Below are positions 3,813-53,974 of a stretch of DNA of 64,000 nucleotides, one piece after another. Below the pieces are notes generated by a model. The model ran no database searches, was not told where the DNA came from, and worked only from the letters and a program-made list of their open reading frames with translations. Position 1 is the stretch's first letter; every line of letters begins with the position of its first letter. The DNA comes from a virus. Lineage: Duplodnaviria; Caudoviricetes. Both the position numbers and the translations under genes were made by a program. The DNA lies in IMG/VR virus record IMGVR_UViG_3300032236_000727, positions 1,906 to 65,905 of that record; one strand, given 5' to 3'.

Positions 3813-3821
3813 TCTAATTAT

Positions 3822-3851
3822 AATAATACAAAAAAATAAGCAAATCCGCCC
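3822..3851 (-). promoter_or_regulatory. Phage late-class promoter GGGCG-N16-TGTATTATT
   Basis: Motif match; the GGGCG overlaps the TAG stop of terL. Confidence 0.75.
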
Positions 3852-5293
3852 TATTGGCTGTAAGGATTTGCAAATTTACGGTGGTCATTGTCCGCATAAT
3901 CATAATCTCGTGCTGGCAAAGGATCTAGCTGTAACCATCCAGAATCCCTTAAAACACGTAAAGCTTGAGATAATGAGTCCACATAGTCATCGTGGCCACC
4001 CGCCTCTGGAAATGAGCAAACCTGGCGTAAAAAGCGTTTAGACCAATCTGCAAATTCCCCTTTTTTGGTGGGTTCTTCAGGAATAAACACTTTACCTTTG
4101 GCTACTAACGGCGCCACAATGTTAAGCCTTTGTACTTTATCTGCTCGTCCTGGGTTGTATCCTCTAACTTCGATTCCAGAACCTTGAAGTTCTTGGATTA
4201 GGGAAATACCAGCAGATTTATCTTCCATAAGTACTAAATCAGCCTTACGTCCTTTTCCAAAGTCATTATCAGCGCCATAGACAACTTCTTTATAGTCCTC
4301 AATCACTTTTCGGCGTAATTCTGGGTACGCTAGGTGGTTATCCCATGAGTCTAGCAAAATAACGCAGGTTCCAGCGTCTTCTCTATCAAATACTCCCCAA
4401 ACAGTACAAGCTGTTGGGTCGTTCATAGTCTTTTCAGAAGTGGCTGGGTCATACGAAGCAATGACATATTCCAGATTAGGTGTGGGTTTATTTGCAGGCC
4501 ACATACGAAATTGCTTACGTTTAATAATACCTGCCTGTTCCGGATCAAGAATCTCACCGTAAATCTCTTGGCGACCAATGTCGGTGCCATCGTAAGTCTC
4601 TAGCTGTTTAAAAAATGTTTCGGAAAGGTTCGCCCTATTGTCGTACGAGGACGCGTTGGCAACGTAGACGTCGCCCCCAACTTTGCCTTCGTTAAGGTCA
4701 ACGATAAGCTCTTTTGGCTTTGGCGTTGTGGTGATGATTTGTTGAACACGAGGAAGTCTGGCGTCTCGCAGACGGAGGGTAAACTGTACGCCATCGTATG
4801 CTTCGTCAATATAGTCGAATGCACACAACTCGTCAAACCAAGCTCCATGGTACTGTTTACCACGATAGCGTTCTGGCTCGGAGGCAGGGATTCCTTGAAT
4901 AAGGGATCCGTTTGTAAGGGTAATCTCAAAGAGGGACTTGTTGTAATCTCGGATAAGGCTCGCGGGTATGATATTGAGAAGACCGGAGTCTCCCTCGAAG
5001 CAAGTTGCACGGATATCATTAGAGGTTGGGGCGGTGACAAGCCAGCGTGTGTTGTCGTAATTCCAAGCCCTAATGCCAATCCAATGACTAGCAGTATGCG
5101 TCTTGCCAGATCCCCGGCCCGCAAGCATAAGGAATGTGTCATATTCGCCGCCTTGTGGTTCTTTTTGATGTGGGAGTGCCTGTATGGCCCATTTGATTTG
5201 CCATATTGCAGCGTCAAGCTGCTGCTGGGGCCAATGTTTGCGGGCATCCGCAAATTTTTTAAGTGTAAGTTCTTGTTCTTGGGTTAGCTGCAT
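3851..5293 (-). CDS. terL: Terminase large subunit
   Basis: Walker A AGRGSGKT, Walker B WFDE, coupling motif TTTP, RNase H-like nuclease (SYDPA..., HDDYVDS). Confidence 0.95.
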   Translation of the reverse strand: MQLTQEQELTLKKFADARKHWPQQQLDAAIWQIKWAIQALPHQKEPQGGEYDTFLMLAGRGSGKTHTASHWIGIRAWNYDNTRWLVTAPTSNDIRATCFEGDSGLLNIIPASLIRDYNKSLFEITLTNGSLIQGIPASEPERYRGKQYHGAWFDELCAFDYIDEAYDGVQFTLRLRDARLPRVQQIITTTPKPKELIVDLNEGKVGGDVYVANASSYDNRANLSETFFKQLETYDGTDIGRQEIYGEILDPEQAGIIKRKQFRMWPANKPTPNLEYVIASYDPATSEKTMNDPTACTVWGVFDREDAGTCVILLDSWDNHLAYPELRRKVIEDYKEVVYGADNDFGKGRKADLVLMEDKSAGISLIQELQGSGIEVRGYNPGRADKVQRLNIVAPLVAKGKVFIPEEPTKKGEFADWSKRFLRQVCSFPEAGGHDDYVDSLSQALRVLRDSGWLQLDPLPARDYDYADNDHRKFANPYSQ

Positions 5294-6276
5294 GGAATAA
5301 AGCCTTCTCCTACTAAGATAGTACTATCTTCACCGTCAGTCTCAATGTGAACGCAAGACTGTCCTGGAATGGGCGTAATACTGGTTATGTACCTTCTCGC
5401 GTGATGAACCTTTACAGGTGGCGAGATTTGATTTGGTAGCAATTTACTGCGGGATTTAAAAAATAATACATAATTCTTTTTATATTCGTCGCCGCGAATA
5501 CGCGTTCTACAAGCAAGTGATTCAACCAGGCCTTGAATTAAGGTAATTGTGCCTAAATGTTTGCTAGTAATACGAAACTTATCTGTCTTTTCAGAATACT
5601 GCCTGTTTTTTGCGCACAATATTCCAGATAAAAGCTCGACTCTTTGCTCTTCTGATGCAAGAAGATAGTTATTTGGTATAGTCTTTGGGATATTTGGAAT
5701 TAACTGCGACTCAATACTAGGAGTTATCTTAAAATCTCGTTCACCGTTGGGTTGCATTCTACCAAATTTTAACTTATAGCCATAATCTTTAAGTTTTGTT
5801 GTCACAAACTCAAAGACTTCTTTGGGGGCTGTTAGTCTGCTGTGTGCTCCACGGGCAAAAAACCAAAACCCAAATACAAACGGGGGTACCGGCAGATCTT
5901 GATGTGGTAGCTGCAAAGGTTTTGTTGTGGGTACTGAGTACAGTTTACTGTTTGTCTTGCTAACAAGCGAGGTTTCCAACAGATCTTGCACAGCAAAATG
6001 CTTTAATGGTCTGCGAAACTTATGGACACCTTTATATGTCTGCAAACGGTTACGGTATTTAGGGGTCTCACACATAAATCCCAAGTGTCTGTCCCCAGAT
6101 GCTGTTAGGTAATCGTTAAACATTACCGCATAACAGTCATCTGCCCGGTATTCTTGTACCAGTTTAACCTTAACTAATTTTCCGTTTTGATTAAATACAT
6201 AATCACCTGGCTTTAATTGGTAAGCATATTTCCAATAGTCAAGCGTTAGTATTTTCTCCATTGCTGTTATTGCCAT
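5284..6276 (-). CDS. Free-standing intein-like protein (Hint plus degenerate LAGLIDADG)
   Basis: Block A-like start (AITAMEKILT..WK...LKPGDYVFNQNG), block B-like CYAVMFND..DRH, LPVPPFVFG, IPNNYLLAS..QR.ELLSG, block F/G-like CVHIETDGEDSTILVGEGFIP; no exteins. Confidence 0.75.
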   Translation of the reverse strand: MAITAMEKILTLDYWKYAYQLKPGDYVFNQNGKLVKVKLVQEYRADDCYAVMFNDYLTASGDRHLGFMCETPKYRNRLQTYKGVHKFRRPLKHFAVQDLLETSLVSKTNSKLYSVPTTKPLQLPHQDLPVPPFVFGFWFFARGAHSRLTAPKEVFEFVTTKLKDYGYKLKFGRMQPNGERDFKITPSIESQLIPNIPKTIPNNYLLASEEQRVELLSGILCAKNRQYSEKTDKFRITSKHLGTITLIQGLVESLACRTRIRGDEYKKNYVLFFKSRSKLLPNQISPPVKVHHARRYITSITPIPGQSCVHIETDGEDSTILVGEGFIPCS

Positions 6277-6547
6277 AAAATGTATCGGCGACCCATCGGT
6301 CTAGCCAGCGCCCTAACGGCGCTCTTATCCTATTTTGTATTTGAATTGGGAGTTGCTGTATAACAAGCGGCTCAGAAGTAATACTAAGACGAAACTGCAA
6401 ATACTTTTGAGTGTCTTGATCCAGTATTTCTGCCGGAACGTCAACCATTTCTAAAAAGTCTATGTTGCATACCAAAACTCGAAGGCCTACAAACTTTCCT
6501 TGCGCGTTTTCTAATGCTCCTTGAATTTGGTACACATATTTGCTCAT
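6239..6547 (-). CDS. Hypothetical protein, first gene of the packaging operon
   Basis: 102-aa ORF; ATG lies 6 nt after the promoter box (leaderless). Confidence 0.7.
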   Translation of the reverse strand: MSKYVYQIQGALENAQGKFVGLRVLVCNIDFLEMVDVPAEILDQDTQKYLQFRLSITSEPLVIQQLPIQIQNRIRAPLGRWLDRWVADTFYGNNSNGENTNA

Positions 6548-6553
6548 AATTAC

Positions 6554-6583
6554 AATAATGCAAAAATCAAAGACTTAGCGTCC
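6554..6583 (-). promoter_or_regulatory. Phage late-class promoter variant GGACG-N16-TGCATTATT
   Basis: Motif match driving the packaging operon. Confidence 0.7.
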
Positions 6584-6602
6584 CATTTTTAGAAATATAC
6601 TC

Positions 6603-6827
6603 ATTTGCTCCTAGGGTTGCTAGGGTTGCAAGGCTTATTTCCAGTTTTATCCAGACGCTTACGCTTTTTTTAAAAAATTTTAAAAAATAGTAAAAAGGGG
6701 TTACAACCCTAGCAACCCTAGGACCAAGTTTGTAAGTCATTGATTTTAAACAAAACAAATGACAATCATTCTCAATTAAAATCAAAAAACCCGCAGGAGT
6801 AAAGGAGTTGGTGGAAGTTATTGATTT
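6603..6827. repeat. Origin-like element copy 1 (inverted TAGGGTTGC iterons, AT-rich spacer, IHF-like sites)
   Basis: 27-nt and 39-nt blocks are identical to those in 11720-11914. Confidence 0.75.
6755..6774. promoter_or_regulatory. Fur-box-like site
   Basis: TGACAAT-C-ATTCTCA matches the 7-1-7 Fur consensus at 12/14 positions. Confidence 0.55.
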
Positions 6828-6954
6828 GTAAGGAAATTTTACAAAAAAAATTTTTAGAAATTGACTTTTTGCAAAAAATCTGCGAGTTATAAAAGCTTGC
6901 GTTCTTTGGGGCCCCCGCCGACCCGCCTAGCATAGGACCCAAATTGGGTGTATC

Positions 6955-7269
6955 GGTCTATAAAAAGACCCCCCATTCCGCATTATGGTAATTCATTTCA
7001 CTATGTGGTATGTGCCACACAGCCTAAGTGAGTACTTACTTACATAGCCACGCGCCCAAGCTCCAGCTCTTAGCACTCACTGGCATAGAGTGCTGATAAT
7101 GGGGACAGAGTCAAGGCAACCAGCCACATAGGTTAGTAAGCACTAACATAGAGTGACGCGCCCACATAAGTTAGTAAGCACTTACTTCACACTGGCGCGG
7201 ACTAATAACCTTACTGCCAGTGTGGGTATTATGGTGCAGTGCCACATAGGCTATTAGGGTAAACACCTA
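6955..7269. promoter_or_regulatory. Cluster of short palindromic operator-like sites
   Basis: At least 9 distinct palindromes in about 315 bp of non-coding DNA (see findings). Confidence 0.65.
7070..7096. promoter_or_regulatory. CIRCE element (HrcA operator)
   Basis: TTAGCACTC-N9-GAGTGCTGA; 17/18 match to the consensus TTAGCACTC-N9-GAGTGCTAA. Confidence 0.8.
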
Positions 7270-7441
7270 TTGACGGATAGGAGGGGCGAGAAGGGGTCTA
7301 GGAGACGAGATGAGTAGAGATGAGGCTACCCCCTTAACTAGTGGACGATCTCTTGTCTTCCAGTTAACACGGGGCGCTCAGAGGCACGCGCACGCGAGGG
7401 GGCGAGGTGGGGGTGTGGCGTCATAATGGTTGAGTCGAGCT

Positions 7442-7466
7442 CCCACCATATCCCACAATCCCCCAC
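7442..7466 (-). promoter_or_regulatory. MraZ-box-like triple repeat
   Basis: GTGGG three times at an exact 10-bp period (CCCAC at 7442, 7452, 7462). Confidence 0.6.
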
Positions 7467-7538
7467 AGTTTAGTCAAGTATTCAGATCGCCAGCAAACCC
7501 AATAGATATAAGGCTGAGAATATATTTGCATAAAGTTG

Positions 7539-7566
7539 TTGACATTGTTTCCAAAAGCTGGATAAT
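7539..7566 (+). promoter_or_regulatory. Host sigma70-type early promoter
   Basis: TTGACA-N16-GATAAT upstream of the first rightward genes. Confidence 0.65.
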
Positions 7567-7655
7567 AGATTCTGTTGTAACGCAGTACGCAAACCCAACC
7601 GCGATAAATAAGGGGGAGCTGGCAGAACCAGTGCTGTTATCCAACACAGCGTATG

Positions 7656-7708
7656 AGGTAGCGACGTGACGCGTCGCCTGATGAGACCAAGCGACAAGGT
7701 CGAAACCT
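7656..7708 (+). ncRNA. Hammerhead ribozyme, type III
   Basis: AGG-UA / stem I GCGACG-UGACG-CGUCGC / CUGAUGA / stem II GACC..GGUC / GAAA-CCU; predicted cleavage after A7660; stem III is short. Confidence 0.8.
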
Positions 7709-7722
7709 AAAGGAGCTATACA

Positions 7723-7914
7723 ATGACACGAGCTGAACTGATCCAAACAATCCTACGCAGTGAGCTGAGCCAGTGGCGTACCATGACTAAAGACCAACTA
7801 CTCGAGTGCCTGCTGATGGAGCGCAGGGAAGTGCTTGACGAGCTGAGCCATGATACACTGACCTATATGTCGGCTGACATTGACGTTGCAGAGGTATGGG
7901 GGCAGGCAATTTAA
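7723..7914 (+). CDS. Small early protein lying between two hammerhead ribozymes
   Basis: 63 aa, RBS AAGGAG at 7710-7715. Confidence 0.75.
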   Translation: MTRAELIQTILRSELSQWRTMTKDQLLECLLMERREVLDELSHDTLTYMSADIDVAEVWGQAI

Positions 7915-7916
7915 CA

Positions 7917-7968
7917 GGTCGAAACCGTGTTGACACGGTCTATACGTTAGGCGTATACTGATGAGACC
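7917..7968 (+). ncRNA. Hammerhead ribozyme, type II
   Basis: GGUC-GAAA / stem III CCGUG-UUGA-CACGG / UC / stem I UAUACG-UUAGG-CGUAUA / CUGAUGA-GACC; predicted cleavage after C7940. Confidence 0.9.
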
Positions 7969-7983
7969 AACATAGGAGGACTT

Positions 7984-8166
7984 ATGATCAACGAACACCA
8001 AAAGAAAATAGCGTACGCTGAGGGCTATCACGCTGGCATGATCAGCGAGCAGTTTGACAATCCGTACGATGACTTTGAACTGCGCGTGCAGTTTAGCTAC
8101 GGCTTTAGAACTGCAACTAACCGCGTCGATTCATTTTATAAACAACATAATCAGGAGTACGCATAA
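7984..8166 (+). CDS. Small early protein with an RMF (ribosome modulation factor)-like pattern
   Basis: AYAEGYHAG...NPY...F.YGF; RBS AGGAGG. Confidence 0.55.
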   Translation: MINEHQKKIAYAEGYHAGMISEQFDNPYDDFELRVQFSYGFRTATNRVDSFYKQHNQEYA

Positions 8167-10173: not shown

Positions 10174-10481
10174 GCCAGTACAGATACATACTTATTGACC
10201 AATTTGGAGGGGCGTGCAGGAAGTTTGTGTCTAAACTGGAAGCTACCCCTTACCTTACCGATGGAATGGTCTTAAAGGCACTACCACGTGCCCCAAAAGA
10301 CAATCCATACCAAGTAGCATTAACCATATTACAGGAGGCATTGTTTTGAAGATCATCGGATTTCTTATCACGCTTGTATCAGTATTCTTAATCAGCGAGG
10401 GCAGTAACGAGCCCAGTGACTATCTATGGCTAGTCATTGGCATTCTGTTTTTGTACCCGCAAATCATCGGAAAGGTCTTTA

Positions 10482-11057
10482 ATGGCAAGCAACAATAACG
10501 ACATCAAAAGCGACTACCTAAAATCCCTGTACGGCATACCAACACTGTCAACCAAGGAGGAGCATAGACTCGCGCAGTTAATTGCAGAGGGGGATGATGA
10601 TGCCTTGGAAAAGCTAGTCACCCATAATCTACGCTTTGTCCCGCACGTTGTCACTAAAATGCCAGCGTGGCAACATAGCAAGATGCCGATGGAGGATATT
10701 CTAGCCATCGGTAACGAGATGCTACTAATTGCCGCCAAACGCTGGAGACCGCACGCTAATGTACCATTCGCTGGGTACGCTCGCCCGTTTATTGAACGCG
10801 GTGTACGTAGGGAGCTGGACAATACTGCAAATATTATTCGACTGCCAGTGAACATTATGGAGGCATTAAAACGCATGAACTACAACGAGAGGGCACTGTT
10901 GCAGGTCTTAGGACGTAAGCCAACAGTTGAAGAGCTAGCGACTATACTGGGCACTACCACAAACAGGGTGCACCAGCTCAGGGGCTATATATCCCGTGAG
11001 CCGATTAGCCTAGACAATATTGAGAACGAAAAACATTTTGAGGAGAGTGAAGAATGA
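10482..11057 (+). CDS. Sigma70-family factor with regions 1.2, 2 and 3 only (no region 4)
   Basis: PTLSTKEEHRLA..GDDDALEKLVTHNLRFV; DILAIGNEMLLIAAKRW; IIRLPV; LGRKPTVEELA; ends shortly after ISLD. Confidence 0.85.
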   Translation: MASNNNDIKSDYLKSLYGIPTLSTKEEHRLAQLIAEGDDDALEKLVTHNLRFVPHVVTKMPAWQHSKMPMEDILAIGNEMLLIAAKRWRPHANVPFAGYARPFIERGVRRELDNTANIIRLPVNIMEALKRMNYNERALLQVLGRKPTVEELATILGTTTNRVHQLRGYISREPISLDNIENEKHFEESEE

Positions 11058-11625: not shown

Positions 11626-11719
11626 TGGACGACTTTGACCCATGGTTTAAGCTTTTCCTATTATTGGTGGCTATATACTTTTTAGGGCATATAGGATTAG
11701 TTCTGATTGGTTTTTAGTT

Positions 11720-11914
11720 ATTTGCTCCTAGGGTTGCTAGGGTTGCTAGGGTATAATTCCAGTTTATATACCCACACTTCGTTTTTATTTAAATTATTTA
11801 AAAGTAATAATAAGGCGTGCAACCCTAGCAACCCAAGCAGAAATGCTCTAAGTCCTTGATTTATATAGGGTACCTACCCGCAGGAGTAAAGGAGTTGGTG
11901 GAAGTTATTGATTT
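11720..11914. repeat. Origin-like element copy 2, immediately upstream of the primase-helicase
   Basis: Inverted TAGGGTTGC iterons around an AT-rich core; IHF-like AATCAA-N4-TT sites; direct repeat of 6603-6827. Confidence 0.75.
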
Positions 11915-11932
11915 ATATAGCTTTTTTATTTA

Positions 11933-11974
11933 TTTTATATGGTGAAATGCCAACACACCATATTTTGCATTATT
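11933..11974 (+). promoter_or_regulatory. Phage middle-class promoter (TGCATTATT) with an upstream TTTTATATGGTGAAA box
   Basis: -10-type motif at 11966-11974; no GGGCG at the 16-nt spacing. Confidence 0.65.
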
Positions 11975-11996
11975 GTATCTGACTAGAAAGGATTAC

Positions 11997-14306
11997 ATGA
12001 GCGACACTAAACCTTATTGCCTACCAGTACAACTCTCCAACATTCCCATTGAGCTACGTAAAGTGGCACGCTGGGTGATGTGGTCTTTTGTACAGGTTGG
12101 CGACGGTGATAATAAGAGATGGGCTAAGATGCCACTCCAGACCAGTGGCAAGTCAGCCTCATCCACCAATCCAGCAACATGGACAGACTTTATCAGCGCC
12201 GAACAGGCGTATAACACCGACAAGTTTGACGGCATTGGCTTTGTGTTTAACGAGGACGATAATTTAGTAGGGATTGACCTTGACGATTGCTTTAATGGCA
12301 CCGAGGGCGTTTTCATAAATGCTGCAATGCAGCAATTAGCCGACAAGGTAGACGGTTATATGGAGATCAGTCCATCGGGCACGGGTGTTAAGATATTCAC
12401 CCGCTCAGAACCGTTTGCATCACACGCGGATCACTCAATTGGCTTTGAGGCTTACTCAAAGGGACGATTCTTTACCGTAACAGGTCAGCATATCTCAGGC
12501 ACTATTCCGCAAGATGCGCAGGACTTGACCAGCATTATCCCTGAGCGCACCATGCGTGCGACAGGTGATGCGTTTGGTGACTACACGCCGCCGCTTGAGG
12601 ACTATGATATTACCCGCGTTGAGAATGAGATCTTGGCGCATATTAACCCTGAGTGTGGCTACCATGAGTGGCTTAAGGTAGGCGCGATTCTACACCACCA
12701 GTTTCACGGTGACGTTGAGGCGTGTGAGGCATGGGATCGTTGGAGCGCAACAGGCTCGTCCTACACCTCAACAGGTGACTACTCGTGCGAGAATAAGTGG
12801 AGGACGTTTAAGGGATCGGGCGCGACACTGCGCTCACTCTTATTCCAAGTCAACCAACAGGCACGCACACAGGCGCTTGCACGTGGTGAGATTATCCTTG
12901 ACAACGGCGCGATGAACCACGCCCGTACGTTCTTGGACAATTACTACACCAGCGAGGAGGGCTATAAGTTAGTGCACTACGCCGATGACTTTTACATCTA
13001 CGTTGGCACTCACTACGAGGTGATTGAGGAGGCGACTATTCGTTCTAAGGTGTACGCCTTTTTGGACAAGTGTAAGAAGAGTGGCAAGCAGGGCGCGTTG
13101 GTGCCGTTTAACCCATCACCAGCGACGGTATCAGGCGCACTGGACGCGATTAAGTCTATCGTTCACTTGCCTAACCACCCGAACACCAAGCCACCGATTT
13201 GGCTAGAGGAGTATGCTGTATCTAAACCATCAGCCTCTAAGCTTGTCAGTCTTAGAAACGGTATCTTTCACCTAGAGGACTCTATACTGATCCCGCACTC
13301 ACTGGGTTTCTTTACACAAAACTCATTGCCCTTTGAGTATGATCAGTCAGCGCAGTGCCCTACATGGATGGGCTTTTTGTCATCCGTATGGCCTGACGAT
13401 CAGGAGTCGATTGACTGCTTGCAGGAAATGTTTGGCTATATTTTATCGGGAGATACGAGACAGCAAAAATTCTTTAACATTATCGGACCTCGCCGATCAG
13501 GCAAGGGGACAATCAACAAGGTGCTAGTCGCGCTGTTAGGTCAGCACAATACAGTGGCACCAGAACTAGGAGAACTCTGTGATACCTTTGGCCTACAACC
13601 TTGGCTTGGTAAGCTGCTCGCTAGTTTTACTGATGCAAGAGCACCTGAGAGAAATAGATCTGCTGTTGTATCTCAACTTTTGCGTATTGTTGGGGGTGAT
13701 ACCATTACTGTCAACAGGAAGAATAAAGAAAGCTGGAACGGCTATTTGCCTACTCGTCTGGTTATTTATTCTAACGAGGTGTTGCAGCTAACAGAGAACT
13801 CTAACGCGTTAACAGGTCGTATGGTTGTGTTAAAGATGACCAAGTCATTCTTTAACAAGGAGGACACCGACCTCGCGCACAAGTTAGAGCAGGAGTTAGG
13901 CGGCATCTTTAACTGGGCTATGGACGGACTCAAGCGTCGTATTGCTAGAGGCGGTCACTTTGTACAGCCAACATCAGGCAAGGAGTATCTTGACCTCATG
14001 GCTGAACTGGGCAACCCTATCGGCACTTTTGTTGAGGATGCACTGGAGTTTGACCCCAAGGCAATTGTCCGCAAGGAGGACGTGTTTGCCTGCTTTAAAC
14101 ACTGGGCGCTTAAGAAGTCAATGAGCCCGGGCACAGAGCAGGCATTCAAGCGCAGATTCTTAGCGGCAACTCAGGAAAACTACGTGATGGCTCAACAGGT
14201 GCAGATCAAGGGCGAGCGATCACAGGTCTACTTGGGTATTAGACTTAACGAGAAGGCACAGAAGTATGTTGACTCGATTGAGACTTTTGACGAGAGTGTA
14301 TTTTGA
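11997..14306 (+). CDS. Primase-polymerase / PriCT-2 / D5-like SF3 helicase fusion
   Basis: GIDLDD and EISPSGTGVKI primase motifs; YHEWLKVG..LH...WDRWS; Walker A GPRRSGKGT. Confidence 0.9.
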   Translation: MSDTKPYCLPVQLSNIPIELRKVARWVMWSFVQVGDGDNKRWAKMPLQTSGKSASSTNPATWTDFISAEQAYNTDKFDGIGFVFNEDDNLVGIDLDDCFNGTEGVFINAAMQQLADKVDGYMEISPSGTGVKIFTRSEPFASHADHSIGFEAYSKGRFFTVTGQHISGTIPQDAQDLTSIIPERTMRATGDAFGDYTPPLEDYDITRVENEILAHINPECGYHEWLKVGAILHHQFHGDVEACEAWDRWSATGSSYTSTGDYSCENKWRTFKGSGATLRSLLFQVNQQARTQALARGEIILDNGAMNHARTFLDNYYTSEEGYKLVHYADDFYIYVGTHYEVIEEATIRSKVYAFLDKCKKSGKQGALVPFNPSPATVSGALDAIKSIVHLPNHPNTKPPIWLEEYAVSKPSASKLVSLRNGIFHLEDSILIPHSLGFFTQNSLPFEYDQSAQCPTWMGFLSSVWPDDQESIDCLQEMFGYILSGDTRQQKFFNIIGPRRSGKGTINKVLVALLGQHNTVAPELGELCDTFGLQPWLGKLLASFTDARAPERNRSAVVSQLLRIVGGDTITVNRKNKESWNGYLPTRLVIYSNEVLQLTENSNALTGRMVVLKMTKSFFNKEDTDLAHKLEQELGGIFNWAMDGLKRRIARGGHFVQPTSGKEYLDLMAELGNPIGTFVEDALEFDPKAIVRKEDVFACFKHWALKKSMSPGTEQAFKRRFLAATQENYVMAQQVQIKGERSQVYLGIRLNEKAQKYVDSIETFDESVF

Positions 14307-15773: not shown

Positions 15774-16247
15774 ATGATTAAAAATATATTGTTGATTTTT
15801 GCATTATTGTTATTACCACAAACAATTTGTCTCGCTGATGAAATGGCTGTTTCAGCCGCGCCGTTAGATAATCCTAGCGGTAGTCGGTGCAAGGTAGTGC
15901 TATCAGACTACCGTGCAGGCTCAGCAGCGCAGTATGTTGGTAGTTGTGGGTGGACAGGTCTTAATGGAACAGCAGCCTATGTGCAGGGTTGGAACCATTC
16001 AAACCACATTAAGGTAGTACGTGGTCAGTTTGTATCGGGGCGTGTTGATTCATTTGCCAAGGTGACATACATCAACAAGGTAAATAATGTTGTGCAAACA
16101 TACGAGGAAAACAGCTATATGTCACGCAACTTTACAACATACCAACTAGGAGACCTATTAGCAGACGCGCATCAGTCCGGATTAAATTTTGACAACACAG
16201 TATCGGCCTACATTAAACTGGCGAACTATATTGACATAAGGGAATAA
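15774..16247 (+). CDS. Secreted or periplasmic protein
   Basis: Hydrophobic N-terminal signal peptide; RBS AGGAG. Confidence 0.6.
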   Translation: MIKNILLIFALLLLPQTICLADEMAVSAAPLDNPSGSRCKVVLSDYRAGSAAQYVGSCGWTGLNGTAAYVQGWNHSNHIKVVRGQFVSGRVDSFAKVTYINKVNNVVQTYEENSYMSRNFTTYQLGDLLADAHQSGLNFDNTVSAYIKLANYIDIRE

Positions 16248-18638: not shown

Positions 18639-19671
18639 AAATGTAGCTTGGCTTTGTGGCCTTTCAGATAAGTTAGTGTTTACTAACTTAGTGATTGACG
18701 AGAGTAGCCGGTTTAAAGACCCAAGTACTAAGCGTTTTAAGGCACTTAAGAAGCATTTAAAGGGCTTTTCCAGGCGTTTAATCCTGACTGGTACACCTAC
18801 CCCTCAGGGCGTGGGAGATCTCTGGTCTCAGGTGGGTATATTAGACTTAGGGGAGCGTTTGGAGACTAGCCTGACCCGCTTTAGGGACAAGTATATGACG
18901 CCAGACCAGATGAACCGCCATACACGTGTAGTATATAGCTGGAAATTAAAGGAAAATGCAGATCAGATTATTAAAGATAAGGTTGCAGATATTTGTTTTA
19001 GTCTTAAGGCTGAGGATTATCTACAGCTACCGGCTCTTACAACGCTTTATCACCAGGTTGAAATAGACAAAAATGCAAGGAATCAGTATGAGCAACTTAG
19101 AAAAGACATGGTCGTTGAGGTCAAAAAAGAAAAGATCACAGCTCCAACAGCAGCAGCATTGGCGAACAAGCTGCTCCAGTTCACATCGGGAGCGGTCTAT
19201 AATGAAGAAGGAGAGTCTCAAGAAGTACACCGCTCTAAATTGGAACGGCTTGAGTCGATCATGGAAGAATCTTCAAGTCCCACGCTTGTCTTCTATCATT
19301 TCAAGCATTCGCTCCAACGAATACGTCTTTTGTTCCCAGAGGCGGTGGTGCTGGACGATGACAACATTGAGGCGTGGCGTCGTGGCGAGATTCGTATGCT
19401 CCTTGCCCACCCGCAAAGTGGTGGTATCGGGCTTAATCTACAGTGCAACGTTGGAGACACAGCACAAACGGTCTGGTTCGATCTACCATGGAGCTCAGAG
19501 AACTACATCCAGGCAAATGCTAGGATCTACCGCCAAGGGCAAATCAAACCGGTTATTGTACATCACTTAGTGATGACCAATAGCATCGATGAACAGGTAG
19601 TCAAAGTCTTAGATGGAAAAATAAATTTACAACAAGCCCTATTAAACTCCCTAAATTTTGCATTATTGTAA
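18328..19671 (+). CDS. SNF2-family helicase
   Basis: LHPYQ, PGLGKT, DESS, LTGTP, GLNLQ, QANARIYRQGQ. Confidence 0.9.
   Translation: MLKITQLHPYQKELISKAASIPNLGLFLPPGLGKTATTLTIISKQFVGKTLIIAPKRVAETVWDTEVKKWEHLSHLKVSKIMGTPMQRLSGLQTEADIYLINLENVAWLCGLSDKLVFTNLVIDESSRFKDPSTKRFKALKKHLKGFSRRLILTGTPTPQGVGDLWSQVGILDLGERLETSLTRFRDKYMTPDQMNRHTRVVYSWKLKENADQIIKDKVADICFSLKAEDYLQLPALTTLYHQVEIDKNARNQYEQLRKDMVVEVKKEKITAPTAAALANKLLQFTSGAVYNEEGESQEVHRSKLERLESIMEESSSPTLVFYHFKHSLQRIRLLFPEAVVLDDDNIEAWRRGEIRMLLAHPQSGGIGLNLQCNVGDTAQTVWFDLPWSSENYIQANARIYRQGQIKPVIVHHLVMTNSIDEQVVKVLDGKINLQQALLNSLNFALL
19659..19667 (+). promoter_or_regulatory. Phage middle-class promoter box TGCATTATT
   Basis: 6 nt upstream of ATG 19674; no GGGCG. 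Confidence 0.65.
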
Positions 19672-21339: not shown

Positions 21340-21368
21340 GGCGGATTTGGACGTTATTTTGCATTATT
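21339..21368 (+). promoter_or_regulatory. Phage late-class promoter GGGCG-N16-TGCATTATT
   Basis: Motif match; drives the tRNA / basic protein / TerS-like cluster. Confidence 0.75.
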
Positions 21369-21502
21369 GTATATAGGGGGTAATATTAGCTCGTCGGGAT
21401 GACGCCTTTTACCCCTGCGCTGTAAAGAAAGCAAAAGGCTGCCAGTGCGCCTTCATAGAACACTGGCAATTTCACACATCACATACACACAGGAGATTTA
21501 CA

Positions 21503-21763
21503 ATGATGAACCCGTTCGAGTTAAGATTCAGTATTTTCAACACAGCTAAAGATCTAATGATCAAGCAGCATGAAGCCAATTTAGCGGCTTGGGAAGTTCT
21601 TAATAAAACAACTAAAGAAGCTGCAGAATTAGCTCCACAGTTCCCAACAACTGAAGAGATCATCGACAAGGCTATTGAGATCAATACCTTTATCAGCGGC
21701 AATACAACCAAAGAATTGACTAATATCGCTAAGAAATTATCAGGCGTTTCAGTTATATTCTAA
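21503..21763 (+). CDS. Conserved hypothetical phage protein
   Basis: PFELR...AKDLM...FPTTEEII.KA pattern; RBS AGGAG. Confidence 0.7.
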   Translation: MMNPFELRFSIFNTAKDLMIKQHEANLAAWEVLNKTTKEAAELAPQFPTTEEIIDKAIEINTFISGNTTKELTNIAKKLSGVSVIF

Positions 21764-21819
21764 GTAGCATACCCCACACGCCTATCGAAGAAGCGCAACC
21801 TTGTGGGGGTTTTAATCTA

Positions 21820-22557: not shown

Positions 22558-22632
22558 TCCGCTGTAGCTCAGGGGTAGAGCGTTCCCCTTGTAAGGGAAG
22601 GGCCGTGTGTTCAAATCATACCAGCGGAACCA
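22558..22632 (+). tRNA. tRNA-Thr(UGU)
   Basis: Cloverleaf; anticodon loop CTTGTAA; TTCAAAT T-loop; encoded CCA. Confidence 0.85.
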
Positions 22633-22633
22633 A

Positions 22634-22709
22634 GGGGGTGTAGCTCAGTTGGGAGAGCGTTAGCTTTGCAAGCTAAATGTCGTCGGTTCGATCCCGTCCA
22701 CCTCCACCA
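22634..22709 (+). tRNA. tRNA-Ala(UGC)
   Basis: Cloverleaf; G3:U70 pair; anticodon TGC; GTTCGA; encoded CCA. Confidence 0.92.
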
Positions 22710-22877: not shown

Positions 22878-23140
22878 TGGCAACTAAAAAGAACCCATCT
22901 CTATCTATTAACCGTGGTGAAAAGTTACCAGTGTCTAAAGGTGCCGGACTAACTGCCAAGGGTAGAGCTAAGTACAATGCAGCAACCGGATCAAATTTAA
23001 AAGCACCACAGCCACAAGGTGGTGCTCGTAAAGACTCATTCTGTGCTCGTATGTCCGGTGTAAAAGGCCCTATGAAGGACGAGAGTGGTAAACCAACACG
23101 TAAAGCAGCAGCACTAAAAAGGTGGAAATGTGGTAGCTAA
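22877..23140 (+). CDS. Small basic conserved phage protein
   Basis: GLTAKGRAKYN...LKAP...RKDSFCARM...RWKC. Confidence 0.75.
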   Translation: MATKKNPSLSINRGEKLPVSKGAGLTAKGRAKYNAATGSNLKAPQPQGGARKDSFCARMSGVKGPMKDESGKPTRKAAALKRWKCGS

Positions 23141-23525
23141 AAAAGCCCCAGCAAATAAAAAGCAATTTACTAAGGAAATGGCTGAGACCATTTTAGACCT
23201 TGGTAAACAAGGTGCTTCTCAAAAATCTATGTATGCTGCTATTGGTATCAGCAAGGCCACGGCAGCCAAGTGGAAACAAGATGATCCATTTTTTACCGAG
23301 ACTATGGATATGGCAACCACGTATGGTCAAAGTTTTTGGGAGATGATGCTTCTAGCTAATATCGACAACAAAACATTTAATAGCCGTGTTGCTGAAATTG
23401 CATTACGTGGACAGTACCCCGATGATTACAAGGACAATCGCGAGATCAAGGCAAACATCAAACAAGAAGTTACGGTAGACTTTCAAAAAGAAATTTCTGA
23501 GTTGATTGCCGCCCTAAAAATATAA
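23130..23525 (+). CDS. Putative terminase small subunit (HTH)
   Basis: HTH-like N-terminus (GASQK...IGISKAT...W) followed by a helical region typical of TerS. Confidence 0.5.
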   Translation: MVAKKAPANKKQFTKEMAETILDLGKQGASQKSMYAAIGISKATAAKWKQDDPFFTETMDMATTYGQSFWEMMLLANIDNKTFNSRVAEIALRGQYPDDYKDNREIKANIKQEVTVDFQKEISELIAALKI

Positions 23526-25211: not shown

Positions 25212-25279
25212 ATAAGTACGGGTAGACAGGCTGGCCCCGATTGAAGTCCAGTCTTAATGTTAAAAAGGTAATAATCACT

Positions 25280-25798
25280 ATGGCATCAAAATCAATTAAG
25301 ACCAAGTTTGTAACTGGTAAAGTACGTTTCTCTTACGCTAACGTTTTCACACCAGGCGAGACACCTAACGGTACTTTAAAGTACTCTGTTTCTATCCTGA
25401 TTCCAAAATCAGATACAGATACTGTTAATCGCTTTAAGAAAGCATTTGAGGACACCAAGACAGCTAATGCAACTGTATGGGGCGGCTCAATTCCTAAGAC
25501 ACTTAAAGGCGGTTTGCGTGATGGCGACGCTGAGAAGGATGATCCAGCATACGCAGGTCACTACTTTATCAACGCTAGCTCCAATGAAAAACCTGGTATT
25601 GTTGACGCTGATTTAAACCCAATCATTGACACTAGCGAGTTCTACTCTGGTTGCTATGGTCGTGCCTCAATTACATTGTATCCATACGATACAAGTGGCT
25701 CTAAGGGTATCGCTGCTGGTTTGAACAACGTGCAGAAATTAGCTGATGGTGAGAAGTTTGGCGGTTCTACAACCGCAGCAGCAGACTTCGCAGTTTAA
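25280..25798 (+). CDS. DUF2815-family single-stranded DNA-binding protein
   Basis: VRFSYAN, KYSVSILIPK, LRDGD, YSGCYGR, GIAAGLNNVQK..DGE. Confidence 0.88.
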   Translation: MASKSIKTKFVTGKVRFSYANVFTPGETPNGTLKYSVSILIPKSDTDTVNRFKKAFEDTKTANATVWGGSIPKTLKGGLRDGDAEKDDPAYAGHYFINASSNEKPGIVDADLNPIIDTSEFYSGCYGRASITLYPYDTSGSKGIAAGLNNVQKLADGEKFGGSTTAAADFAV

Positions 25799-27759: not shown

Positions 27760-27812
27760 TTTCACATGGTGGTAGTTTGGGGCTCCTTCGGGAGCCTCTT
27801 TTTTGCATTATT
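27760..27812 (+). terminator. TTTCACATGGTGGTA box, UUCG terminator hairpin and fused phage promoter box
   Basis: GGCTCC-TTCG-GGAGCC, T-tract running into TGCATTATT. Confidence 0.7.
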
Positions 27813-27850
27813 GTATATACGCCGATACGTCGGATTGCCTAAGGAGCATT

Positions 27851-29794: not shown

Positions 29795-32700
29795 TTACTT
29801 CTTTTTCTTTTTAATCTTGCCGCCACGCTTTTTGGTAATATCGGGATCTAGCGGGTTGTAGGTTCCGATGTTACCTGTGGCGGATTTTAATTGAGTAGGT
29901 TCAAAAACATTTATATCACCAGTTTTTAAAGCATGAATCGCGTCATACCCAGCTTCTTTAGCTTTTTGTATTACCTCAGCATCCGATAATTTTGTACCCG
30001 TTGGATCAAAATGCCTAAAAAATTCTTCATGTGATTTGTTTATGTCAGATATAACAAAAGGATTTTTAACGGAAACATGAAGCGGTAAAACATTTGGGTA
30101 TGATTCTTTATCCGGTCTTATTATACCTGTGTATTCGCTTGCTGTTTCTGGATTTAAACTAACATAATGTCCGGGACCCATAGCCCCAATTCTTGATGGT
30201 TTAAATTCTTTTATATCTGCACCAGTGCCATGGTACACACGATCTTTAATTGCACTTCCTTCTAAAAACTTAGCTTTGTTAGCCTCCCGCTCAACGAGAG
30301 GCATTACCTTTTTTGCTAACGTCTCCAATGCGCTAACCACTTTACCACCAGGTGCGTAACCCTCAACAGCACCACCCTCAGCCTTCATAAAGTCAGGGTT
30401 GGCTGCCTCTTCTGGATTGTACTTTGCAAACTTGCCACGGATGTTTTGTGGTTCAAATACACCAACGTTTTTAATGCCACCTTCTGTTACGCTAAAAGTG
30501 TCGTGGCCTGTATCTTTTAAATGTTGTATCAATGATGGTGATTCTAACGTTCTCCAATTGTTAATTGGGTCCATCAATTTGTCCATCATGTGTTCGTGTT
30601 TTTTACTTATAATTTCATCAAAGTCTGGCGTAGCCGCTTCTTTTGCGTATCTTTTTGCCAAGTAATCTTTTACAATTTGCTCACCCTCTGGTGTAGATGG
30701 ATCAAAATGTTTGCCTAAGTTAACGCTAACCGGATACATAGTAGAACCAGTTTTAAAACTTTTTTGAGGAACCAATTCACCAGATTGCAAACTGTAGTAA
30801 GGTTTGCTTCCAGGGTTTAAAAAAGATTCAGCAAATTGTGGTTTTGGTGTTACAAAAGTAATCCCTGGAGTAATAAACTCCTCACTTTTTTTAGACTTAC
30901 TTGGATCAAACACCTTAATACTTGGTGATGGACTGCCATGATAAAAGCCAGGGGTAAACTTCTTTTTAAACTCTTCTACAGCAGACTTCATTACTTTACC
31001 ACCGGGCGCGTAACCAGACGCTTGAACTGCTTTAACATAGTCCTCAGTAATTGGCTGAGTTAAAATGTTGCGTGATAGGTGCATAGAGGTCACGTCAGGC
31101 TTTTTGCCCTTAGCAATATTACCCTGACGAATAGCTTCAATGGCATCAGGGTAACCAACCTCTTTCGGTACTGGAGCAAATGAATGTCCTAGATCTTTAC
31201 CAAATAGCGCATAGTCAAAAGCGTTATGTAGATCCGGGCGATACTCTGGAGCTCTTTCGTTTAATGTAAACAGACGAGTTCCAATAGACTGTGTAGGTGC
31301 ACCAATGGTATTAGGATCACGAGCAGCGCCAAGAACATCTTCCCAGTTAAAAATCTGACCTTTTTTGCCACCGAGCTGAACACCTGTTGGACCTTTGCCA
31401 CCCATAATGTCAGCTAATGCAGCACGTTGGTGAAATAGCTTAGCGTTTTCTTCTAACGCAGCGCGGTCACGAATATCAAACTGCTCTGGGAATGTAGTCA
31501 TCATTCCCTTATTAGTCTTGTACGTTGATGCCTTCATAGCATCTTGATACTTTTGTAATAGTTCTGGATCTAATTTACCTGCGGCAATAGCCTTATAAAA
31601 CTCATCGGTAAGATCGCCAAATACGGAACGGTTTGTTTTGAGTTGGGTAGGAGAGCCAAGAAGGCCGGTGATAATCGCGTTACCATCGTTTCTTTGACTT
31701 ACATTATGAAGACGCTTGGCTGCTGCCATGCTGTCGTTTGCAAATACCCAATCCTCTGCCTTGTGCAAAGGACTGATATTTTGTAGGTTAGACGCTTCTG
31801 GACCACCCATTTTACCAAGTGGTAGGTCTACCTTAGTGGTGTCTACAATGGTCGGATGTAATACTTTACCAATGTAGTTCTGAATAATGTCGCTATACTT
31901 TTTTGCCCCTTCTGCGACTTGGGGCGCGGCCTTTTTTAATACTGCACCACCCGGAGCAAAGTTTTGAACTGAGCCACCAGCATTTTTATTGATGTTGCTA
32001 GTATCCTCTTGTGTATCTGGCAAAAAGTATTGGAGTGCTGGAACACCAGCAGATAATGCAGTACCAATAGCACGAATAGGTTTGATCTTAGACTGACTGG
32101 CTACTCCACCAAGAGCGCCAAGTCCGCTTAATGCAGCACGACCATAGTTACCCTTTTCGAGTTCTTCTTTAACATTACCAAGCTCACCACCAGCAACACC
32201 CATGCCAAGCATGCGACGTGCCATACCAGGTTTGCCTAAACGCTCGCCCTCAATAATATTAGTGGCAGCCTTTTTAGCTAAAGTTGGCTCTTGAACTTCT
32301 AGTTGATTAGTAATACCAAGACGGCCTTTACGAATAGGCACTTCTGATCCGCGTGACTTAACTGGTTTACCACGAGCAATTTCTGATTTTAAATAAGCCT
32401 CTTCTTTAGTCTTACCACCAGCGTATGGATGACCTGTCTCTTGTTTAAGCCAGCTAGTAACACCTTTAGGTGCTCCAAGTTCAGCCTCAGATACAGCAGT
32501 AGGGGCAATCTTTTTAGCTAAGTATTCAAGAACAGCATCTGTAGCACCGCCAACTTGAGAACCTAAAGCAGAACCAGTAGCAGCGCCTAATGCTGTTCCA
32601 ACAGCTGGCGCTGATATCATATCATCTACACCCAATACACCACTAATTTTATCACCAATACTTTGGCTTGGCTCATCCAAACCGGCAAGATAGCTTAACT

Positions 32701-32827
32701 GATTCTCTTTTGAGTGACCAGCCTCTTCTGCAGCCTTTATATCGTAATTGTGTAGCTTAGCTAAATAGGCTAATTGATCATCAATTGAATGACCGGCCTC
32801 AGTAGCTGCTTGAGTATCGTATGCCAT
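29795..32827 (-). CDS. Polyvalent injected protein with two ART-like (ADP-ribosyltransferase fold) domains
   Basis: FYHGS...VFEPQNI and VYHGT...GPGHY...GYDA...VFEPTQLKS domains, separated by YAPGG motifs. Confidence 0.7.
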   Translation of the reverse strand: MAYDTQAATEAGHSIDDQLAYLAKLHNYDIKAAEEAGHSKENQLSYLAGLDEPSQSIGDKISGVLGVDDMISAPAVGTALGAATGSALGSQVGGATDAVLEYLAKKIAPTAVSEAELGAPKGVTSWLKQETGHPYAGGKTKEEAYLKSEIARGKPVKSRGSEVPIRKGRLGITNQLEVQEPTLAKKAATNIIEGERLGKPGMARRMLGMGVAGGELGNVKEELEKGNYGRAALSGLGALGGVASQSKIKPIRAIGTALSAGVPALQYFLPDTQEDTSNINKNAGGSVQNFAPGGAVLKKAAPQVAEGAKKYSDIIQNYIGKVLHPTIVDTTKVDLPLGKMGGPEASNLQNISPLHKAEDWVFANDSMAAAKRLHNVSQRNDGNAIITGLLGSPTQLKTNRSVFGDLTDEFYKAIAAGKLDPELLQKYQDAMKASTYKTNKGMMTTFPEQFDIRDRAALEENAKLFHQRAALADIMGGKGPTGVQLGGKKGQIFNWEDVLGAARDPNTIGAPTQSIGTRLFTLNERAPEYRPDLHNAFDYALFGKDLGHSFAPVPKEVGYPDAIEAIRQGNIAKGKKPDVTSMHLSRNILTQPITEDYVKAVQASGYAPGGKVMKSAVEEFKKKFTPGFYHGSPSPSIKVFDPSKSKKSEEFITPGITFVTPKPQFAESFLNPGSKPYYSLQSGELVPQKSFKTGSTMYPVSVNLGKHFDPSTPEGEQIVKDYLAKRYAKEAATPDFDEIISKKHEHMMDKLMDPINNWRTLESPSLIQHLKDTGHDTFSVTEGGIKNVGVFEPQNIRGKFAKYNPEEAANPDFMKAEGGAVEGYAPGGKVVSALETLAKKVMPLVEREANKAKFLEGSAIKDRVYHGTGADIKEFKPSRIGAMGPGHYVSLNPETASEYTGIIRPDKESYPNVLPLHVSVKNPFVISDINKSHEEFFRHFDPTGTKLSDAEVIQKAKEAGYDAIHALKTGDINVFEPTQLKSATGNIGTYNPLDPDITKKRGGKIKKKKK

Positions 32828-37375: not shown

Positions 37376-37419
37376 ATTACAGTTAAGCTATCTAAATTAG
37401 GTTAAGTTCTTCTATATAC

Positions 37420-37449
37420 AATAATGCAAAAATAAAGGGGTCGGCGCCC
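37420..37449 (-). promoter_or_regulatory. Phage late-class promoter GGGCG-N16-TGCATTATT
   Basis: Motif match upstream of the ejection-protein operon. Confidence 0.75.
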
Positions 37450-48187: not shown

Positions 48188-48205
48188 ATAAGTATATTCC
48201 GTTAA

Positions 48206-49486: not shown

Positions 49487-49504
49487 ATAAGTATATTCCG
49501 TTAA

Positions 49505-53800: not shown

Positions 53801-53974
53801 CTTGTTAGCGAACGGATACCATGTTGTTAGTCCGCCCATTTGAATATAAGCATAGATACACTGATCCTTGATGATCATTGTACCTACAGCTGGATTGGTT
53901 GGGAATCCAGCCTCGTCTTTTGTCATTACCAATGCACCGTGAAGCGCTAGGTCGTTTAGTACTCTTGTTTCCAT
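50804..53974 (-). CDS. Collagen-like fibre protein
   Basis: Two long Gly-X-Y blocks; LDTLKEIA motifs; repeated [12 protein letters not shown]. Confidence 0.85.

Follow-up and report, generated by a model that had tools for sequence, protein, structure and literature searches.

Gene layout and conservation of the hub

The window analysed here is a stretch of 64,000 nucleotides of phage DNA, i.e., bases 1906-65905 of the single-contig record IMGVR_UViG_3300032236_000727 (Duplodnaviria; Caudoviricetes), which is 65,905 bp long. Its genes form two opposed groups. The late genes run leftward from 6547, across the record junction and down to 29795; they include a 102-aa open reading frame (ORF, 6239-6547), a 330-aa protein, TerL and the portal. 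The early and replication genes run rightward from 7723 to 29794. They start with a gene at 7723-7914 and include a sigma-like protein, a primase-helicase of the PriCT-2/D5_N type, a helicase, RNR and PolA. The gap at 6548-7722 (1175 bp) is the sole divergent gap between late and early genes. We call it the hub. It holds an element which resembles a replication origin and, to the right of it, an array of short sites which look like operators of host regulators. In related phages the same place is filled with other sites of this kind.

An earlier note on the window, drawn up from its letters alone, had described the array as a set of operators like those of host transcription factors and had suggested that it might serve as a DNA decoy or as an entry ratchet. 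Every motif string that was listed there is present in its place. The hub is also non-coding, as had been claimed: ORFs in 6548-7722 are only short, and in the closest relative, locus L001, frameshifting indels interrupt them, or homology is lost altogether. The late 14-mer at the left and the early promoter P1 at the right of the hub (Table 1) are separated by about 975 bp, in which promoter-like sites of either kind are limited to a single 9/12 match. Inverted repeats are dense in 6950-7270. Eight were counted compared to a mean of 2.09 (standard deviation 1.58) in 398 segments of equal size, one of which reaches eight. When only perfect arms of 6 bp or more with loops of at most 12 are counted, the result is 3 compared to 1.14, and 11.8% of the segments reach 3.

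Relatives were collected by an IMG/VR query with the 330-aa protein, which returned 66 loci; in 58 of these the 102-aa gene is also present. At least 1000 nt upstream of the 102-aa gene are available in 45 loci. Adding the window gives 46 sequences, of which 39 distinct ones, the window and 38 relatives, remain once 7 duplicates are removed. All family counts below refer to these 39 sequences; loci with shorter upstream sequence were excluded. The hub is kept in the 38 relatives though the neighbouring 330-aa protein is 48-60% identical. Its build in the relatives is uniform: about 350 bp are A/T-rich (G+C about 0.31-0.43), followed by about 600 bp which are G+C-rich (about 0.5).

NtrC boxes and sigma-54 promoters in the relatives

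The consensus sequences of the 17-bp NtrC box and of the sigma-54 -24/-12 promoter are those given in PMC8743547. One palindrome class of the relatives, which is absent from the window, equals this NtrC box letter for letter. With at most one mismatch, NtrC boxes are present in the hub of 31 of the 39 sequences, altogether in 75 copies and with one to six copies per carrier. Reversed sequences as a control contain none, and boxes with swapped half-sites were found 3 times. Many of the phage boxes are perfect. In three whole phage records all 8 places with an NtrC box are within the hub. Some boxes are paired at a distance of 32 bp (L043). Elements of the sigma-54 type with at least 11 of 12 matches are present in 9 of 39 sequences, and L016 and L049 each possess two with 12/12; at a threshold of 9/12, 60 elements were found compared to 6 in shuffled sequences. 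Some of them abut NtrC boxes, others are arranged in face-to-face pairs. A genome-wide sigma-54 scan at up to two mismatches yielded matches at about the level of the control.

In 6 phage records no HTH_8 or sigma-54-activator domain scored above the cut-off. NtrC and sigma-54 sites are thus maintained in the hub of a family in which no NtrC-type protein was found in the 6 records searched, which points to the hub as a place where sites for host proteins are kept. In kind, the proposal of an array of host-type regulator sites is supported by the 75 NtrC boxes and the sigma-54 elements in the homologous place. Several of the individual labels are not supported, as detailed below.

One related phage locus led to a betaproteobacterial metagenome-assembled genome (G001), which represents a candidate host lineage. 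In G001 and G008, both of which have rpoN, an NtrC box is located 84 nt upstream of a glnA gene with both glutamine-synthetase domains. Of 10 NtrC boxes in G001, 6 are on three binned phage contigs. After removal of such phage places the genomes of the host lineage contain 0-4 places with an NtrC box at up to one mismatch. The three G001 contigs (C27, C42, C85) belong to three different phages of the family, each with a hub and NtrC boxes.

A known counterpart is the glnAp2-type enhancer of enteric bacteria. In the relatives the NtrC palindrome of 17 bp and the -24/-12 element are identical to its consensus sequences (PMC8743547), and some of them share the 32-bp pairing. They differ from it in that the phage sites lie in gene-free DNA, are present in 1-6 copies, often lack a sigma-54 promoter or have promoters which face each other, and are missing in the window phage.

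Host-type sites in the window phage

In the alignment the segment which elsewhere holds NtrC and sigma-54 units is variable. In the window it is filled by a CIRCE-like block and by palindrome units of about 38 nt, of which L001 has one more. The CIRCE-like site shares with the CIRCE/HrcA operator the 9-bp inverted repeat, the exact 9-nt spacer and 17 of 18 positions. It is unique in the window; 0.02 such sites are expected at up to three mismatches and about 6e-5 at up to one. Five sequences carry it, with 1 mismatch in the window and L001, 2 in L011 and L063, and 3 in L032, and at up to three mismatches it is absent from the other 34. Each of these five has a perfect left arm and retains the spacer. 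All five carriers lack NtrC boxes, which 31 of the 34 others possess. The carriers are related and therefore do not represent five independent events. The pattern searched for is the CIRCE consensus; it also occurs at 0 and 1 mismatch in G001 in two places, upstream of a sigma-32-like (rpoH-like) gene and of groES, and this genome contains hrcA.

Three GTGGG repeats with a period of 10 bp are exact and unique in the window. The expectation is 0.07 at up to two mismatches and about 4e-5 for an exact triplet. At up to two mismatches the triplet is present in 13 of 39 sequences compared to 2 in the control. Mostly about 25 nt separate it from the -35 hexamer of promoter P1, which follows downstream; in the window it is farther away through a 47-nt insertion. 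This is the pattern of MraZ boxes, and it was matched upstream of mraZ in the host lineage. There it is found once per genome in 11 of 13 genomes, and in all 8 cases which were checked mraZ begins 7-8 nt downstream. The middle repeat of the host's own site reads GTGTG, in contrast to the exact phage triplet. With the MraZ boxes at the dcw (mraZ) operon the phage site has in common the three direct repeats of GTGGG type and the 10-bp period. It differs by its position upstream of the -35 of an early promoter, its opposite orientation and its spacers, which are not A-rich. PMC8475190 confirms the concept of the MraZ box and, as regards sequence, the motif of the Mollicutes only.

Close to the origin-like element a palindrome of 7-1-7 build is present, which had been called a Fur box. 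The palindrome stands: 14 of 39 sequences have one at this position, and in L016 it exactly matches the core that we used. The label is weak. Compared with an unvalidated 19-mer consensus for Fur, the site has 14 of 19 positions, i.e., 5 mismatches, and the window has no match to this 19-mer at up to three mismatches. Compared with the likewise unvalidated 7-1-7 core, it has 13 of 15, which is reached by 2% of shuffles. Across the family the core is found in 17 sequences compared to 7 in the reversed control, a weak enrichment.

The statement of the earlier note that the phage encodes none of the cognate regulators was confirmed for MraZ, Fur and HrcA: six-frame searches of the phage with hidden Markov models for these three returned no match at E<=1.

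An origin-like element beside the array

Element A occupies the left part of the hub, to the left of the motif array, yet within the same non-coding region. It forms an inverted repeat whose arms measure 51 nt, and its fold z-scores are -5.3 and -6.0. Element B, the second copy, is located just upstream of the primase gene. The relatives have the same layout with iteron sequences of their own. In G002 and G003 these own iterons occur twice, beside the first late gene and 100-250 nt upstream of the primase gene. A search for a second iteron copy found none within 5.7 kb in L001, and in G004 it found one copy only. The iterons are lineage-specific, yet match within a genome, and hence point to a phage-encoded binding protein.

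Element A has iterons and an A/T-rich core near an initiator gene, as do iteron origins. Our preferred reading is that A and B are a putative iteron origin with a pair of copies like ori and crr of P4. The similarities consist in direct and inverted short iterons around an A/T-rich core, and in the presence of two copies at a distance of about 5 kb, with a gene for a primase-helicase of the D5/P4-alpha type next to one copy. The differences are that the iterons of A and B are 9 bp long and lineage-specific, that the element lies beside a motif array, and that its role in replication is predicted. As a separate observation, a 38-nt stretch at 6790-6827 recurs exactly near 11878-11915.

Conserved blocks and further palindromes

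The G+C-rich part of the hub also contains Block A, Block C and motif M4. They are conserved and strand-specific, and we know of no host consensus which they match. The core of Block A is present in 26 of 39 sequences and 0 times in the reversed control. Block C was delineated in an alignment of 16 sequences. M4 was detected in 26 of 39 sequences, where it reaches up to 4 copies, and is unique within the window; the direct motif which precedes it, TGGTGC-N-GTGCMACA, is found in 13 of 39.

Palindromes of class P1 occur in 34 of 39 sequences with 50 copies, those of class P3 in 22 of 39 with 43 copies, and the control has none of either. Some relatives have an NtrC box in the place of P1. We considered whether the palindromes are lineage-specific operators which co-evolve with phage proteins. 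This was rejected because classes P1 to P3 are family-wide; it holds only for the 9-bp iterons.

For several of these sequences the earlier note had offered names of regulator families. The IclR and TetR labels, given to P1 and P3, are not supported, as the palindromes are family-wide and not enriched in 13 genomes of the host lineage; moreover, the second IclR-like box is lost in L001. The GntR label is unsupported: the arms of the palindrome (GGTCT...AGACC) are broken in the closest relative. The same applies to the 9-bp inverted repeat, which is present in the window and broken in L001. The PhaR label found no support. The LexA label rests on CTGT-N8-ACAG, which occurs once in the window compared to 1.33 expected, i.e., at chance level, and lies in a stretch without homology in L001.

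Table 1. Positions of the hub features and of related elements; numbering is that of the window unless a genome is named
Feature	Position	Strand	Details
Middle/late promoter-like 14-mer, phage-specific	6551-6564	-	3 nt before the ATG of the 102-aa ORF
Exact copies of the 14-mer	6551-6564(-), 11964-11977(+), 19657-19670(+), 21358-21371(+), 27802-27815(+), 37417-37430(-)
Variants of the 14-mer	3819-3832(-), 15799-15809(+)
Element A	6598-6734		two tandem 9-bp iterons (6611-6629), A/T-rich core (~6664-6690), two inverted iterons (6703-6721)
Element B	11716-11836		same orientation as element A
Element copies in G002	21662-21772, 30892-31002
Element copies in G003	12786-12893, 18949-19057
7-1-7 palindrome (core of the "Fur-like" site)	6760-6774		13 nt right of conserved TAAGTC-N-TTGATT (6733-6747)
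Block A	6885-6975	+	G+C-rich; core TGGGGCCMCC 6907-6916; includes the "GntR-like" palindrome 6955-6970
Class-P1 palindromes ("IclR-like")	6976-6990, 6996-7010		second box deleted in L001
Variable module	7025-7187		class-P3 ("TetR-like") palindromes 7025-7042, 7132-7147 and 7168-7187 in ~38-nt units, CIRCE-like site between them; repeat families D2, D4, D5
CIRCE-like inverted repeat	7070-7096		conserved tail to ~7112
9-bp inverted repeat	7188-7224		19-nt loop; 3 substitutions in the right arm in L001
Motif pair	7231-7274	+	TGGTGC-N-GTGCMACA ("PhaR-like", one NtrC half-site inside) and M4 (7255-7274)
Block C	7255-7480	+	~230 bp, non-coding, upstream of the early promoter
GTGGG triplet	7442-7466	-	10-bp period
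Early promoter P1	7539-7566	+	sigma-70 type; TTGACA, 16 nt, GATAAT; 11/12; kept in relatives
5' leader	7620-7649	+	sigma-54-core-like element 7620-7634, overlapping the "LexA-like" CTGT-N8-ACAG 7634-7649
Type III hammerhead ribozyme motif	7653-7711	+	in the leader preceding the first early gene; match to Rfam Hammerhead_3 with 33.6 bits and E 6.3e-5 (gathering score 48.5, not reached)

Flanking promoters and the early leader

The 14-mer at the left border was found by comparing the regions upstream of TerS and of the primase; a crude intergenic scan for late promoters did not recover it. In the genome it is exact in six places, always upstream of and facing a gene, and relatives keep homologous bases. 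One copy precedes the primase, one precedes 19674 and one PolA. Probably the 14-mer serves as a middle/late promoter specific to the phage. At two of its copies 3 nt separate it from the start codon, which suggests leaderless messages. The product of the sigma-like gene at 10437-11057 is 206 aa long and belongs to the sigma-70 family; it has regions 1.2, 2 and 3 and lacks region 4. This protein is a candidate reader of the 14-mer, which it probably serves as a promoter.

At the right border, the window and L001 cease to be homologous immediately downstream of the -10 hexamer of promoter P1. Of 33 relatives which have P1, 4 keep the core TGGCA-N7-TGC of the sigma-54-like element in the leader. 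Since this core occurs nine times in the window, the leader element is weak evidence for sigma-54. To either side of the early promoter lies one copy of a direct repeat of 19 nt (7491-7513 and 7587-7613, 96 nt apart, with 79% identity); the left copy is inside the 47-nt insertion, which the window shares with L001, L002 and L063. Further to the right, the hammerhead motif in the leader is followed by a type II motif at 7917-7976 between the first two early genes, with 26.7 bits likewise below the gathering score. In L001 compensatory changes keep both stems of the type II motif, and several relatives have 2-3 copies per locus. Hammerhead motifs were also noted in L001, L015, L027 and L053.

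A proposed modular hub for host regulators

Tentatively, and at somewhat less than an even chance, we favour the view that the hub is a modular platform which recruits host regulators and thereby controls early transcription and the adjacent origin-like element. This view builds on what the comparisons above establish, i.e., the anatomy of the hub, its conservation, NtrC, sigma-54, CIRCE and MraZ patterns identical to those of the candidate host lineage, and the lack of genes for the cognates in the phages searched. That host proteins bind to the hub, and what the binding would do, we infer from the patterns.

According to this proposal the hub would be one divergent control region between a leftward late promoter and a rightward early promoter for host sigma-70, and would itself presumably be untranscribed. 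It would have two parts, the iteron and A/T-rich element, which resembles a replication origin and is repeated upstream of the primase gene, and a modular array of short sites for host regulators, which would be exchangeable between lineages. The module of most relatives would consist of NtrC boxes with or without sigma-54 promoters, that of the window phage of the CIRCE-type site and other palindromes, with the MraZ-type triplet upstream of the early promoter; the Fur-type palindrome adjoins the origin-like element. Host regulators would dock to these sites, and early transcription and/or the firing of the origin might be set by nitrogen supply, protein-folding stress, division state and iron.

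Several arrangements favour such a function in cis: fixed positions are seen for the GTGGG triplet and for the Fur-like palindrome, some NtrC boxes are paired at 32 bp, boxes abut perfect sigma-54 promoters, and the sites are confined to the hub. The earlier note had held that most sites are not positioned on a promoter. This is correct for the CIRCE-like site and does not apply to the triplet and the Fur-like palindrome, which are placed by a promoter and by the promoter-like hexamer TTGATT, respectively. Such placement fits regulation better than a pure decoy.

Control of phage genes by single sites for host factors is known for LexA, Fur and IHF; examples are the LexA boxes of temperate phages and the Fur-controlled stx1 promoter. 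The similarity with such promoters and with the central control region of phi29 is that regulators of the host or the phage positioned between divergent early and late promoters time expression. The hub differs by having several host-type sites in one place, by swapped modules, by belonging to a lytic-looking phage, and by sites which are mostly far from promoters. What would be new is a gene-free hub in which whole cassettes of host sites, either NtrC boxes plus sigma-54 promoters or a CIRCE site plus other palindromes, are swapped between related phages of lytic type. If the function in cis is true, the hub shows how uncultured freshwater phages tie infection to the nitrogen status, stress and division state of the host, and its elements would be, as far as we know, among the first phage elements which depend on sigma-54 and NtrC.

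A number of observations weigh against this view. The window phage and L001 have no NtrC box, and the window has no sigma-54 element with at least 10 of 12 matches. Consequently, the strongest evidence regarding the window phage is that the place, rather than the sequence, is homologous. The hub of most relatives with NtrC boxes lacks a good sigma-54 promoter, contrary to the expectation from an enhancer model. At the CIRCE-like site neither a promoter upstream nor a chaperone gene downstream was found, in contrast to the groES site of the host; without a promoter, classical repression by HrcA cannot be its role. In addition, its right arm is degenerate in three of the five lineages. In the 13 genomes of the host lineage P1 was found in 4 places compared to 1 in the control and P3 in 1 compared to 1, and the genes near these places have nothing in common; P1 and P3 may bind phage proteins. 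Matching against consensus sequences invites chance look-alikes. The assignment of the host-lineage genomes goes back to one metagenome-assembled genome with three phage contigs, which could be a binning artefact. Lastly, the sites in the hub are predicted from sequence.

Alternative explanations

The sites might instead serve the phage alone, as packaging signal (pac or cos), as accessories of the origin or as operators for phage proteins, and the likeness to host sites would be coincidental or irrelevant. The packaging module, with a complete TerL and two small upstream genes, adjoins the hub, and the iterons which match between copies in a lineage-specific manner point to a binding protein of the phage. 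Blocks A, C and M4 fit in here, as do P1 and P3 with their lack of enrichment in the host lineage, and so does the 78% similarity of the CIRCE-like site to the neighbouring repeat unit of family D5. Moreover, G+C-rich cores like that of Block A are a typical feature of cos sites. On this explanation, however, the 75 NtrC boxes and the perfect sigma-54 promoters are left without a reason in relatives which have no NtrC-type protein (6 records), and the chance of a CIRCE match of 17/18 and of an exact MraZ triplet is about 1e-4 each. Moreover, when 20 early ORFs and 10 ORFs of the replication module were scanned, the only DNA-binding domain was the TerS-like match at 23130-23525. The connection with packaging consists of the adjacency to TerL. 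We consider sites for phage proteins only as a rather unlikely, yet serious, explanation. The other alternative retains host proteins as ligands and dispenses with a job in cis. Here exchangeable cassettes of top-affinity operators would, upon replication of the genome, titrate host regulators of low abundance: NtrC and the sigma-54 holoenzyme in most lineages, HrcA in the window lineage, MraZ in 13 of 39 sequences including the window phage, and perhaps Fur. Without any phage protein, chaperones would be derepressed or the nitrogen-starvation and division programmes disarmed. Phage sites equal or exceed those of the host in quality, as evident from the exact GTGGG triplet and the many perfect NtrC boxes. 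A single phage with up to 6 NtrC boxes has as many as a whole genome of the host lineage (0-4 places), and the 2 CIRCE places and 1 MraZ site per host genome would be outnumbered by a replicating phage. The CIRCE-like site off any promoter, the majority of NtrC-box lineages without a sigma-54 promoter, and copy numbers and positions which differ among lineages agree with a sponge. We also count in its favour that a literature search turned up no report of a phage-borne CIRCE or of an operator decoy. Titration of a regulator by operators on multicopy DNA is established by the Fur titration assay on plasmids; we know of no phage which uses it. That many good operators can derepress a regulon provides the physical basis for a decoy, with the difference that it is a laboratory effect. 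Binding is predicted here as well, and the window phage has but one CIRCE-type and one MraZ-type site per genome. The fixed places of the triplet and of the Fur-like palindrome and the NtrC boxes which are spaced by 32 bp or abut perfect sigma-54 promoters, and thus resemble working enhancers, argue against titration, and a sponge would not require confinement to one untranscribed hub. On balance a decoy appears unlikely to us, yet it is a live alternative. If it were true, it would amount to a protein-free takeover of the host by operator titration. In cis or in trans, the content of sites could be read as an "address label" of host physiology and as a clue to the host of phages which are known from metagenomes only.

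Two further explanations are far less probable. One, which the earlier note had raised as an option, is a leading-end device: the hub would enter the cell first and be shielded or pulled in by bound host proteins. The non-coding end regions of T5 or T7 would be comparable. The early genes and a sigma-70 promoter do adjoin the hub, and Caulobacter phage GB2A, which is distant and has a related TerL, possesses terminal repeats of 2.9 kb which include its terminase genes. Further, in run X1 the depth of the unitig 6798-7632 is double that of the adjoining sequence. The premise is not supported. The 101-bp end repeat of the record lies inside a late gene and is an assembly overlap, so it is uninformative on the physical ends, and the hub is internal to the circular map. 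Contig ends of relatives, read off match positions, are scattered at 79-1518 nt from the first late gene. The doubled depth is what adding this phage (about 15) to a co-occurring relative (13.9) would give, and the breaks of the unitig coincide with the A/B repeat and with a point of divergence. A terminal repeat or genome end deduced from the depth in X1 was therefore rejected, an entry ratchet is left without support, and we regard a leading-end device as very improbable. That the G+C-rich part encodes a large structured non-coding RNA is scarcely credible. High nucleotide conservation, the raised G+C content (0.52 compared to 0.31 adjoining) and a single compensatory change between the window and L001 might be cited for it. 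Yet RNAalifold found next to nothing: for Block C it gave -3.9 and -3.5, based on 14 of 16 sequences after exclusion of the incomplete L011 and L060, and for Block A, based on 33 sequences, 0.0 on either strand. The fold z-scores of the two blocks range from -0.3 to -0.9 (Block C: -0.8 and -0.5), Rfam families apart from the hammerhead are absent, and no promoter feeds the region. The Rfam scan of the hub returned the sub-threshold hammerhead only, and matches of microRNA type reflect the large inverted repeat. With these scores and without a conserved structure with covariation the structured RNA was rejected.

Record, genome ends and neighbouring genes

IMG/VR lists the record with end repeats and as 100% complete. 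The sequence occurs in freshwater metagenome runs; those found are all stored as contigs. A blastn search of 6500-8000 against phage records gave zero matches, and the phage collection searched contains no cultured close relative. An unannotated gap of 1.4 kb in MW202545.1 was compared with the hub and is not homologous. In run X1 the unitig 6798-7632 covers the G+C-rich part of the hub exactly, with a depth of 29.6 compared to about 15 in the flanks. This is best explained by a co-occurring relative which is identical over this stretch and different in the flanks. On this explanation the hub would be swapped or retained as one unit.

TerL, at 3851-5293, is complete with 480 aa and has Terminase_6N and 6C domains. 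A split TerL was considered and rejected because the one protein carries both terminase domains. The 102-aa and 330-aa genes beside TerL have no clear family. In the replication module a 131-aa protein (23130-23525, +) matches small-terminase families (E about 6e-6) and is a candidate for the true small terminase.

Elsewhere in the window, three regions on the minus strand (29795-32827, 50804-53974 and 46892-50785) hold a 1010-aa protein with the ADP-ribosyltransferase domain of polyvalent proteins, a 1056-aa protein with collagen repeats, and three adjacent, paralogue-like ORFs of 426-431 aa. A DUF2815 RNA motif (76.8 bits) is present upstream of a gene for a Gp2.5-like single-stranded-DNA-binding protein; genes for tRNA-Thr and tRNA-Ala, adjacent to each other, are near this motif, and the positions 25219-25282 and 22558-22709 apply jointly to the motif and the tRNAs.

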